In this document: in pieces, positions 25,613 to 55,400 of the stretch
Position numbering within the stretch: the first letter of the stretch is position 1
Layout of the letters: every line of letters starts with the position of its first letter
IMG/VR virus record: IMGVR_UViG_3300021426_000070
Coordinates: 1-64,000 of that record
Length of the DNA stretch: 64,000 nucleotides
DNA from: a virus
Taxonomy: Duplodnaviria; Caudoviricetes
Reading direction: 5' to 3' (one strand)
The notes under the pieces: model-generated
What the model saw: the letters and a program-made list of their open reading frames with translations, nothing else
Databases searched by the model: none
What the model was told of the DNA's origin: nothing
Position numbers and translations under genes: made by a program

Positions 25613-26536
25613 TTAAGCGGCTACACGACCTCTGTTGACCTCTTGCTTGCTGGTCTCAAAGAAACGTTTCTCAGCGGCGGTCAAGAAAGGTATCTCAGAG
25701 ATAGTCTCAACCTCGTTCTCGATAACGTTATTCATTGAGTAGGCTACGAGCTTTGACAAGAAAGTCACCCACATCTTAATCTTGGTAAAGTTTGTCGAGC
25801 CTTGGTGCTGACGAAACTCGATTGTGTGATGACGAACGAAAGACTCAGCATTAACAGAGTGATAGCGGTCAAAACCCATTACCGAACGGACAGCCTCGGG
25901 TGTGTGGCAGTATGAGAAATCGTAACCATCAATAGGCTTGCAATAGAAAGCGTCACGGCGGCTAGGTGCAAGAAAACTGCTAATCACATTCTGCAGCTTC
26001 TGATAGTTTTTGAACACGTTCACATACTGCTCACCACTGAGCTCAGAAGCACCGATATGCACGTGCAAGCCCGTTGATTTGTTGACGTATGCGCCAGCCT
26101 CGTTGAGAGCGTTGCAGCAAGCCTCGAGCTTATCAAAGCCGCTCTTGTTGCCGTTGAGGATTGGCGATACACACTCGATAGGTTCACCATCCATACCTAA
26201 CGTCCGACTGATTGATGAGTCTGACACAAACTTAAAATGGTCTCTGTTATCGTTGTGGTTGTAGTTCTCAAACTCGTAAGGCACGTTATCACGGCTAGCT
26301 ACATCCTCAAAGCGGTAGCGTGGCATATTGCACTCGATTTCAACACCAAAGGTAAAGCTGAAACGTGGCTTGCTCTCTCTGTGTACCACGGGCAGAACGA
26401 AAGAAATCTCATTCTCTCTGATACCTAACTTGATAAGAGCCTTCACTTTCTCAGAACGTGAGCCCTTCATGTTAATCACATCGTTAATCTGCTCACTGAG
26501 TGACTTTCTGTTGTTGAAACCATTGTCGTACATCAT
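25613..26536 (-). CDS. Putative amidoligase (COOH-NH2 ligase family)
   Basis: TFGVEIE, DSSI, ECVSPIL, STGLHVHIG, TIEFRQHQGS. The start is placed downstream of the promoter at 26735-26742. Confidence 0.88.
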   Translation of the reverse strand: MMYDNGFNNRKSLSEQINDVINMKGSRSEKVKALIKLGIRENEISFVLPVVHRESKPRFSFTFGVEIECNMPRYRFEDVASRDNVPYEFENYNHNDNRDHFKFVSDSSISRTLGMDGEPIECVSPILNGNKSGFDKLEACCNALNEAGAYVNKSTGLHVHIGASELSGEQYVNVFKNYQKLQNVISSFLAPSRRDAFYCKPIDGYDFSYCHTPEAVRSVMGFDRYHSVNAESFVRHHTIEFRQHQGSTNFTKIKMWVTFLSKLVAYSMNNVIENEVETISEIPFLTAAEKRFFETSKQEVNRGRVAA

Positions 26537-26870
26537 AATAGCGGTGCTAGTTTTTAAAGAGCTCGCTCTGCTCGTTGGGGTTAGACTTAAAAAGTGCTTT
26601 GGGCGATTTGACCGTTTTCTAACGAGTGCCGCTCGCTTGCAGTTTATGAGGTGTGCCTCACCTACGCCCTCTGTCACCATTTCAAAGACAAGTTTTACGA
26701 GTGCCTCTCGGTCTCTCATTTCTGATTGACATTGCAAAGATAGGCATTTTCTCTTTACTGCGCAAATATTTTGCAAAGAATTGTATGTTTTTTAACATCG
26801 TTTCACGTCAAATGGGTGGTTTTTCACAATCGTTCACAAAAAGGCATAAAAAAAGCCCGCTATAAGCGGA

Positions 26871-51805: not shown

Positions 51806-52006
51806 CTATTTTGCCTTTTTTATAGCCGTAGAAAGCATTTCTACCTCTCGTACGATACCTTGTGCTATCAGCTCTCTGTTCTTGCCGTACGGCTTTGATT
51901 TGCCCGTCTTGTACTTTCTCATCAATGACGGGGTAATGCCTATCCTTTCCGCAAACGCTGATGCATTGATATAAGGGAAAGACTCGAAAAACTCTTTTAT
52001 ATCCAT
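51806..52006 (-). CDS. Small HTH protein (antitoxin-like)
   Basis: INASAFAERIGITPSLMRKYKTG. Confidence 0.6.
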   Translation of the reverse strand: MDIKEFFESFPYINASAFAERIGITPSLMRKYKTGKSKPYGKNRELIAQGIVREVEMLSTAIKKAK

Positions 52007-52283
52007 TTCTCTTTCCTTTCTTTAAATCGTTTCAACACTTCTTGACACCAATCTTTATCTGTAAATCTCTTCGTCTTTCCTTGTTCCAAGTTCTCTGCCC
52101 AAAAATCAAGGAAAGCATTTAATATTATTTCCACATCTTCCAAAGTCAGCTCCAAGTCTTTCTCTGCTTGATGGTAGCCTTCGATATATTCTGCGCAAAC
52201 ACCTTTAAGGTGCTTTTCTATCCATTCTTTGCTTGCACCCTCATGCACGGGGAATCTCTCTAATGCTCTTTCTGTGGCTTTAT

Positions 52284-52490
52284 TCATCTTCTTTTTCTTT
52301 TACGTTTATTCAATAATTCAATACCATAATTCTTTGGTGTCCTTTTTTGGCTGCAGCATGCGGCGTACACATCAGCACCAAACGATTTTGCTTCTACACC
52401 GTATTGCTCTTTGAGTACTTTCGCTATATCTTGCAGCTCTTTCATATCAGTCTCCAATAACGTTTCCGCTATCTTTCTTATATCAGCCAT
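52284..52490 (-). CDS. Ribosomal protein bL12 N-terminal-domain-like protein
   Basis: MADIRKIAETLLETDMKELQDIAKVLKEQYGVE parallels the Bacteroidales bL12 N-terminus; hinge and CTD absent. Confidence 0.65.
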   Translation of the reverse strand: MADIRKIAETLLETDMKELQDIAKVLKEQYGVEAKSFGADVYAACCSQKRTPKNYGIELLNKRKRKRR

Positions 52491-52498
52491 ATAACATA

Positions 52499-55400
52499 TT
52501 ATTCTCCTTTATGTGATTTTATATATTCTAATAACTCTTGACCAGCTTTATCAAACTTCTCTTTCTCTTCTTTGCTTAGTGGCTTGTAAACCATCTTAAT
52601 TTTATACGTATCATCCACCTCTATCACTTCAAGATTGTTGATGAAATGTTTTAATATACCAAGATAAGTTGCAGCACCTAAATTGAATTCATTACTATTT
52701 TTGTAATTCCGATTCTCCAATCTTTCTATCTCAGCCAATAAAGCATCTTTGCTAATATAATTTGCCATAATCTATTTATTTTGTTGTTGTCTCACAATAA
52801 CCTCTTACGCCCTCGATGTAGTCGCTACCTACGGCAGAGAACCGCATACCACGCTCAAAGAAATGTGTGGCAATACCATTAAATGTATCGAACGGAATAT
52901 CATTACCCGCATTATGGATAGTTTTCCATCCATCTACTATTTCTTTTTCCAAGTCCACCCCTTTCACTTCAAGGGTGTCTATGAAAGAGAGAATGTTTAA
53001 ATCCTCTTCAACCATACCAAAATACTGAGGTAGCGTCTGCTTTCCACTATTCTCATCCATTCTTCCTTTTATCCACGCTACTAAAACGTCTTTATCTATA
53101 TACTTTCCCATAATCTATTCTCCTTTCTTTTATTTAAGTAATGGTTGAAATATCCAATACATTATTAATCCTACTATACTGATAATAAGACACATTCCAT
53201 CTAAAAACAAAGTAAACTTAGTAATTTCAAGCATTTTAACATTACGGAAATATCGCCAAGACAAATTACTTTTCTTATATCTATACCATTCAATAAAGAA
53301 AAGTATTATATGTAGCACAAGCCACACGATACTAAATCTAAATAGTACACTTTCCATAACTTACTCTCCTTTCTGTGCTTTAAGCCCAAGTTCGAAGAAA
53401 TGTTCTGCAAACTTGATTATCTCATCACCACCTTTTAATGTAAGGTTACAATATTTCCAATTAGGTTCTAAAGCCAATCTTTTTCTACCATCATGTGTAT
53501 AAATGTAGGCATCAATGGCTTTCTCCAAGTCCACCTCTTTCACCTCAAGGGTGTCGAGCAATTCAATCACTTCATTATATGCTTCTACCTTATATTTAGC
53601 CTCTGTAGAACTTCCATAACTCCATTCATTTTTTCTTTTCTCTATTTTCGCTAATAAAGCGTCTAATTCAATGTATCGTGCCATAACTATTGTTTCTTAA
53701 AATTCGACATACCTTTGTGTGATTTCTCAAACTCTTCTTGTAGCATTGCTAGACGAAATAACTCTCTAAAACCGAGATTACCATATTGTTCTTTATAGTT
53801 TATCTGCAAATCTTTTAGCTTGTCTTCAAATAATATACAATCACTTGCTTTAGTGAGGTCTATACCATTAGCGTACATCGACAATGCTTGAATATCATTC
53901 CAAGGCAACCATACCTCGTGACTAAGATAGTAATCAGTAGCTTCTTTGTATTTGCCGTTGTTTAACAGAGTTACCATTTCAATTTTATCATTCCATTCCA
54001 TACCTTACTCTCCTTTCTTTTCTTTAAGCCCAAGATTTTCCATTCTATATTTCTCATCATGGGTTAATTTAAATAGCCCAACGCTATGCAACTCTTTAAT
54101 TGCTTTTCTCAGCCTTGCGGCAACCATTGGCTTATTATGCGCAAGATTACTTGTGTGGGTGAAATCAAGGTACTCGTATGCCTCTGCCATATTCTCGCTA
54201 ATACTACTTACGTCCACCTCTTTTGCCTCGAGTGTGTCAAGGTGTTCTAATAATTGTTTATAGCAAACCTTTCTTACCATGCTTGCGTTCTCACACAAAT
54301 AAGTTTCCTTTGCCCACGCTAATAAAGCGTCTTTGTCTATCAAATGTGCCATAATCTCACTTTTTTATGTACTTTTCTATATACCGACAAATCATATCCC
54401 AATCGCCCATATCAAATGCAACGTTTATGTTTTTACACTCACCATTTGATAGACACATCTTACCTTGTGGTCGATTGTTATCAAGATAAGCCATCAGTGC
54501 CATAGCAAGTACTCTTTTGATTCTGTTATAATCCTCATCACAACGGAAATACCTTACCATACCACGAATATTACCATCTTGTCCTATACCATATTCTTGT
54601 TTTCTGTAATTTTCTTGCAAGAATATCTTTTGTGGAGTTTTTGTTTTATCTGTCATCATATCATATACTTTTTAAATTCATTTGCTCTGCTTTGCCAAAC
54701 TACCCTCTTAATATTTCTAATAATTCTTCTGCTCGCTCTCTGTCACCAAATCCTTTGATGTCAACCCACTTGTCTGTAAAGAACCCCTCTTCGAGTTTCT
54801 GAACAAAGTAGCCGTCATAAGGAATACAGCCACCATTAACATAACACGGGTATCTGTGTTCAATTCTATACTTTGCCATACTTCACTTTATATAAATGAT
54901 TATTTCGTTTGGCTTATCAGAGCATATAACTCTGCCACATACTATTCCATTTACAAACTCTCTCTTAAAAGGGCTTTCCAACCAAGAACGGTCGAAAATA
55001 ATATCACCTTTTTGTGGGATTTCACCTTGCCAATTCTCCCACCTTCCAATCTCGTAGGATGTTCTAGTCTGAAATATAATTGTCATATCTTACTCTTCTG
55101 TCGTTGTTTTATAGAAATCGTTGATAGTCACTTCGAGGTTGCGATATTTCAAGCCATCCATTGACTCTACCGCCTTTTTCTCTGCTTCTTTCTTTATGTC
55201 CTTTTTGTGGCAGTAAAAACGCTCTGCTTCAATATCTCTGTCTGAAATCCATTCGCCGCTCTCTTCCTCAAGCCACTCGTAAGTCCACGAATAACTTACC
55301 CACCAAGCATAATCACGTCCTACTTTCATACTCTACTCTCCTTTCATATACTTTCCCATGTTCTCCACAAAACTCTCAATATCTCCACATTCAATACAAC

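Follow-up and report, generated by a model that had tools for sequence, protein, structure and literature searches.

The ribosomal stalk is the entry port for all translational GTPases, and the Bacteroidales, dominant bacteria of the gut and the rumen, already have an unusual mechanism of initiation. In the stalk protein bL12, residues 1-36, at the N-terminus, mediate dimerisation and the attachment of the dimers to L10, the C-terminal domain (CTD) is thought to contact elongation factors, and the protein, which is present in multiple copies, has been described as readily extracted from ribosomes and as reassociating with them (PMC1635324). Viruses are also known to encode bL12-related proteins. 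Mizuno et al. 2019 (PMC6375957) defined a set of viral bL12 by the Ribosomal_L12 C-terminal domain, with its residues contacting EF-G, EF-Tu and uL11, and viral proteins of the bL12-domain and bS21 kinds are able to join E. coli ribosomes (PMC6375957); a form of bL12 consisting of the N-terminal domain (NTD) alone is not mentioned in that work. In Archaea and Eukaryotes, the proteins aP1 and P1/P2 have an analogous layout, in which a helical dimerising NTD seated on uL10/P0 is followed by a spacer and by a short functional C-terminal peptide or helix (PMC5887453, PMC3794596). Here we describe a small phage protein (P0001) and its family, in which an NTD of the bacterial type is joined to a basic tail.

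The gene lies in a window of 64,000 nucleotides, the whole stretch of DNA that was analysed, which belongs to the genome of a tailed phage of rumen type (G000), an IMG/VR record of 129,359 bp rated 100% complete by CheckV. This genome encodes a large terminase, a portal, a major head protein and a small terminase, and the phage origin of the gene is confirmed. No sign of an alternative genetic code was seen in G000, where ORFs of at least 100 aa called with table 11 already cover 83%. The ORF begins with ATG and encodes 68 residues, with MADIRKIAE at the front and LLNKRKRKRR at the end (Table 1). Its stop codon and the start codon of the next gene share bases (ATGA) and the gap to its upstream gene is only 8 nt, which places it within a tightly packed operon of small minus-strand genes; those around it have no Pfam or PHROG annotation. 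The ATGA overlap suggests that its translation may be coupled to that of the downstream 96-aa gene, which matches nothing in Pfam or PHROGs and is not kept beside the family gene in other phages. The locus is surrounded by small accessory genes, with ParB-like and small-terminase genes near it. The DNA of the gene is base-for-base identical in four other public assemblies (five independent assemblies in all), and its copies are either identical in DNA or too diverged for dN/dS. At least four of the small neighbouring genes (those listed in Table 1 as near P0001) are paralogues of each other, with an N-terminus of MAxYIxKDALLAxI type and an internal LDTLEVKEVD box in common; related copies are found in two other loci (L007 and L008), and none of these paralogues has a Pfam or PHROG match. 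Elsewhere in the window, located between the head and portal genes, a 387-aa protein matches the phage amidoligase family phrog_2443 (E 5e-55).

Table 1. Coordinates of the bL12-NTD/basic-tail gene, of its parts and of the other features mentioned in the text.
Feature	Record	Positions	Strand	Remarks
bL12-NTD/basic-tail gene (P0001)	window	52284..52490	-	complete, 68 codons plus stop; ORF list and translation
residues 1-35, bL12 NTD-like (dimerisation/uL10-binding domain, two-helix hairpin)	window	52386..52490	-	Pfam, BLASTP, hhalign, AF2
residues 36-50, variable spacer in place of Ala/Pro/Gly hinge	window	52341..52385	-	least conserved columns of the family
residues 51-68, TPKNYGIELLN then KRKRKRR	window	52287..52340	-	conserved C-terminal motif
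96-aa gene downstream of the P0001 gene	window	51997..52287	-	start overlaps P0001 stop (ATGA)
small gene near P0001	window	52499-52768	-	
small gene near P0001	window	52776-53111	-	
small gene near P0001	window	53361-53684	-	
small gene near P0001	window	54005-54352	-	
387-aa protein	window	25613-26776	-	phrog_2443 match
tRNA-Val(GAC)	G000	69105-69178	-	ARAGORN; ~5.1 kb past the window end
DUF4494 (PF14902) protein	G000	84583-85035	-	outside the window
DUF4494 (PF14902) protein	L021	6750-7214	-	
tRNA-like gene, 89 nt	G000	85529-85617	-	ARAGORN; four-base anticodon call (atag)
rplA-rplJ-rplL-rpoB cluster	MT836236.1	1458-4740		bacterial

The first-pass annotation, made from the sequence alone, had described P0001 as a bL12 NTD without hinge or CTD, and a family profile, hhalign, BLASTP and the lack of a PF00542 match all bear this out. 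In a BLASTP comparison with the bL12 of a rumen Prevotellaceae (L122), 17/32 residues are identical (53%) and 26/32 are positives, in an ungapped alignment that places Met1 on Met1 (pairwise E 1e-10). Residues 4-35 of P0001 align with positions 2-33 of the Pfam model PF16320 (Ribosomal_L12_N) with 17.4 bits (E 0.0035), below the Pfam cut-off of 25 bits for this model, and TIGR00855 gave a weak match (E 0.0088). The search with Ribosomal_L12_N that the annotation had suggested is thus positive at the level of the family, in which 29/35 members match the model individually, but stays below the threshold for P0001 alone. An exhaustive phmmer search with P0001 returned five short relatives of the same architecture, and a profile of the six sequences retrieved thousands of authentic bL12 of 122-126 aa (E ~1e-12) from 5.8 billion proteins. 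Comparison of the family with Bacteroidales bL12 by hhalign gave 99.4% (E 1.1e-21) over columns 1-41 of both, the family model matches rplL of three Prevotella-type genomes (E ~1e-17 to 1e-18), and the consensus NTD of the family is identical to the L122 bL12 at 30/36 positions. The likeness to cellular bL12 extends ungapped from Met1 through residue 35 and includes the same predicted two-helix hairpin, with helices predicted by AF2 at residues 4-13 and 16-30 of P0001. These sequence comparisons establish that residues 1-35 are homologous to the Bacteroidales bL12 NTD; the donor was a Bacteroidales rplL, probably of Prevotellaceae type. PHROGs returned for P0001 only a weak match, to a family of unknown function. 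Foldseek of its model against the PDB found no match at E<=0.001, and VIA-align of the model of a typical member (P0013) against 48,161 chains reached at best Z 4.3, an uninformative value when the protein is small and helical.

P0001 is a divergent member of its family, 30-48% identical to the others, and its residue 14 is Thr, in place of the Leu of real bL12 and of 69% of the family. Variation in the family affects either end of the protein. In some subfamilies the NTD is degraded and the tail is intact (L009 and L010, for instance, are without the EYG motif), part of helix 2 is missing from two members (P0073 and P0074), and one member has kept the NTD with an altered tail. The subfamilies with a degraded NTD and an intact tail hint that the essential part of the protein may be its tail, and that canonical docking on uL10 may not be universal.

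Cellular bL12 continues beyond the NTD with a hinge and a PF00542 head, whereas the phage protein is without both and carries instead a basic, phage-specific tail. PF00542, the C-terminal factor-binding domain, gave no match to P0001 at E<=10, and the protein ends at residue 68. The Ala/Pro/Gly hinge is also absent: P0001 has KSFGADVYAACCSQKR at the hinge position, in contrast to the AAAAVAVAAGPAAGG-type hinge of real Bacteroidales bL12, and typical family members have a charged predicted helix there. The length of this spacer varies across the family from 15 to 24 residues, with top-residue frequencies of 0.19-0.57. In the AF2 models it forms a weak helix in P0001 (residues 39-47) and a longer one in P0013 (residues 35-56, mean pLDDT 85).

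The basic tail pointed out in the first-pass annotation is indeed present and ends in a basic run. It is more than a basic stretch, however, as it contains a motif strongly conserved over 68 clusters, [ST]PKxYG[IM]xL[LM]N, and behind this a polybasic run of five to seven Lys, Arg or His. Column frequencies in the 68 members are 0.97 for S/T, 1.0 for P, 0.91 for K, 1.0 for Y, 1.0 for G, 0.84 for I/M and 0.97 for L, so that the motif is conserved at least as well as the NTD. Since all 68 short high-scoring matches carry the motif, its invariance does not stem from the way in which members were selected. Given a near-invariant tail and a spacer that is free to vary, both ends of the protein must be under constraint. 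AF2 predicts a tail helix that begins just past the S-P, at residues 52-67 in P0001 (pLDDT ~85) and 59-73 in P0013. The net charge of the tail is ~+9, beside a hydrophobic YGIxLL patch; the bL12 family is normally acidic, but this tail is strongly basic. Across four complete phage genomes and eight loci, no ORF apart from the family gene was found to carry the motif, and a search of 5.8 billion proteins with region 35-74 of P0013 returned family members alone. A tail-only profile retrieved no PDB chain at E<=10, and an ESM Atlas feature search for the tail gave scores below 0.9. The back-translated tail pattern was not found in 401 Prevotellaceae-type genomes, in a search whose positive control matched 4/9 family loci. 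Judged by its sequence, P0001 is a phage-borne chimera of a Prevotella-type bL12 anchor, a spacer and a phage-specific C-terminal helix.

The family, as delimited by the profile search of 5.8 billion proteins, has 68 clusters at 90% identity, with lengths of 52-89 aa. P0001 aligns end to end with the 67 other clusters, through the NTD, the spacer, the motif and the polybasic end. In the source databases these proteins are named 'ribosomal protein L7/L12' or 'hypothetical protein'. The family is present in nine IMG/VR contigs, five of which (G000 among them) are complete genomes of 112-130 kb. The phages that carry it are not close relatives: their GC content ranges from 42 to 56%, G000 has only 9-18 ORFs in common with G001-G003, in which neither its terminase nor its major head protein is detectable. 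The four compared genomes have just two ORFs in common, the bL12-NTD gene and the gene of a DUF4494 protein. Within 6 kb, the family gene is the sole gene conserved in all eight compared loci; no conserved neighbour or partner was found over this distance, and the neighbours are annotated heterogeneously. This setting differs from that of cellular bL12, whose gene belongs to the rplK-rplA-rplJ-rplL-rpoB cluster with rplJ directly upstream, whereas the P0001 gene is part of a phage operon of small unknown genes.

The DUF4494 protein is ~50% identical over the four otherwise unrelated phages and occurs in 5/5 complete family-bearing genomes. Its co-occurrence with the family is unspecific, because DUF4494 is found in at least 406 IMG/VR contigs; it also occurs in Bacteroides thetaiotaomicron, and the literature searched does not mention it. 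One match from a phage collection was rejected (H1, locus L002; MT836236.1, 'Bacteriophage sp.' from human faeces, flagged 'UNVERIFIED'). It is bacterial rplJ-rplL DNA, not phage DNA, in a record that contains the bacterial cluster listed in Table 1 and is probably a piece of Bacteroidales chromosome wrongly filed as phage.

The closest described relatives are the viral bL12 proteins of Mizuno et al. (PMC6375957), which are likewise encoded by phage genes derived from host bL12 and for which an action at the stalk was proposed. Those proteins carry the CTD, and the P0001 family is the converse, having the anchor only. The resemblance to aP1 and P1/P2 is one of analogy alone, with no homology; further, the tails of the P-proteins are acidic and hydrophobic and bind translational GTPases, whereas the tail of the P0001 family is strongly basic. 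Full-text literature on PF16320 (Ribosomal_L12_N) and on phage stalk proteins contained no description of the family. On these comparisons, it is an anchor-only variant of virus-encoded bL12, undescribed in the literature searched. Since the described viral bL12 carry the factor-binding head, an anchor with a tail of its own points to another strategy, in which the composition of the host stalk would be edited.

We favour, with about even chances of being right, a role for P0001 in such stalk editing, by which the recruitment of factors would be dampened or biased. The first-pass annotation had likewise proposed a stalk-binding mimic, which stays a reasonable reading. Because bL12 residues 1-36 dimerise and attach to L10, an anchor-only protein should be able to take a position in the stalk. 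The NTD would dimerise, either with itself or with host bL12, and the dimer would dock on helix alpha-8 of uL10, the usual seat of bL12 dimers. That stalk position would then bear a strongly basic helix and not an acidic, factor-recruiting head. The tail, tethered at approximately the natural hinge length, could reach the GTPase-associated centre and bind rRNA or a factor there, and the recruitment of IF2, EF-Tu and EF-G would be dampened or biased during infection as a result. Since bL12 is easily extracted and reassociates (PMC1635324), a phage protein of 7-8 kDa could act quickly after infection. The NTD stays host-like across phages that differ in GC and have few ORFs in common, which argues for selection on compatibility with a host partner. 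A prediction of the complex between residues 112-171 of the rumen Prevotellaceae uL10 and the family protein in two copies, with alignments entered for both, gave a score of 0.02 (mark 0.32) and weighs neither way on binding.

The divergence of P0001, the degraded NTDs of some subfamilies and the altered tail of one member count against the stalk-editing reading. The phage itself also needs translation, and a protein that simply poisoned it would require control of its dose or timing. A possible though unlikely extension of stalk editing is a modular adaptor, in which phages would exploit the fast exchange of the bL12 anchor to place a C-terminal effector peptide, the counterpart of a P-protein tail, on host ribosomes. 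By recruiting or blocking a specific partner, the peptide would reprogramme ribosomes and not simply poison them. The partner would be sought among phage or host factors, ribosome-targeting defence proteins, or host bL12 itself through mimicry of uL10. The family could also serve as a small, easily synthesised reagent for learning how translation in the Bacteroidales depends on copy number in the stalk and on the chemistry of the tail.

The evidence on the two ends of the protein also bears on explanations other than stalk editing. The NTD might be a mere dimeriser for a basic helix with affinity for nucleic acid or for an anionic membrane, its ribosomal origin being incidental. Such a use would fit the higher conservation of the tail compared with the NTD, the retention of the tail by members in which the NTD is degraded, the position of the tail charge beside the hydrophobic patch described above, and the location of the gene, which has small accessory genes around it and ParB-like and small-terminase genes nearby. 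A mere dimeriser could drift freely, yet 29/35 members match PF16320 individually, and the 30/36 identities of the consensus NTD with host bL12 include charged surface positions and are maintained over very different phages. We consider this non-ribosomal use unlikely.

Alternatively, the tail might imitate the segment of uL10 alpha-8 that is bound by bL12 dimers, so that P0001 would be a trap for bL12 or an extender of the stalk. Its tail would then cap the protein itself, sequester free host bL12 dimers from uL10, or bring extra bL12 dimers to the stalk. The comparison is between SPAKNVISALQ in uL10 and SPKQYGISLLN in the tail, with S-P at a helix start or kink in both proteins. An 11-column PSSM of the tail finds its best match at this exact site in 24/26 Bacteroidota uL10; typical scores are 4-8 bits, above those of all 319 unrelated ORFs of 140-200 aa, and ~0.003 such matches are expected per protein (226,271 background windows). 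The likeness was spotted post hoc, however, and is weak, as family members score 26-36 bits against their own PSSM. The site is moreover scoreless in the rumen Prevotellaceae uL10 (L122), the most host-like one, and scores -0.9 in two Prevotella uL10, while hhalign detected no similarity between the family and uL10 and the tail-only profile, as noted, retrieved no PDB chain. We therefore regard the imitation of uL10 as distinctly improbable.

That the gene is a functionless remnant of an rplL once captured and now in decay, or a product of chimeric assembly with host DNA, is very unlikely given the pattern of conservation, for although truncated or frameshifted fragments of real bL12 exist in metagenome protein sets (P0007, P0009, P0011 and P0012) and one 'phage' record turned out to hold bacterial rplJ-rplL DNA, the family has 68 intact clusters of one architecture with a conserved non-bL12 tail, the gene is embedded in a phage operon with apparent translational coupling, and it is found in five complete phage genomes and, with identical DNA, in five independent assemblies.

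Finally, a link between this protein and non-AUG (GUC) initiation had been proposed in the first-pass annotation. ARAGORN identified in G000 a tRNA-Val(GAC) gene, beyond the end of the window (Table 1), whose acceptor end is initiator-like (5' CGCGG, a C1:A72 mismatch and 3' CCGCAAC) and whose anticodon stem is without three consecutive G-C pairs. Of three other complete family phages, two are devoid of tRNA genes, and the third has an initiator-type tRNA with the normal CAU anticodon. With the GAC initiator-like tRNA present in G000 only, in one of the four complete family phages compared, the proposed link finds no support in the family. ARAGORN also called in G000 a tRNA-like gene with a four-base anticodon and no assigned identity, which sits inside a tRNA cluster (Gln, Leu, Leu, Lys, Glu).
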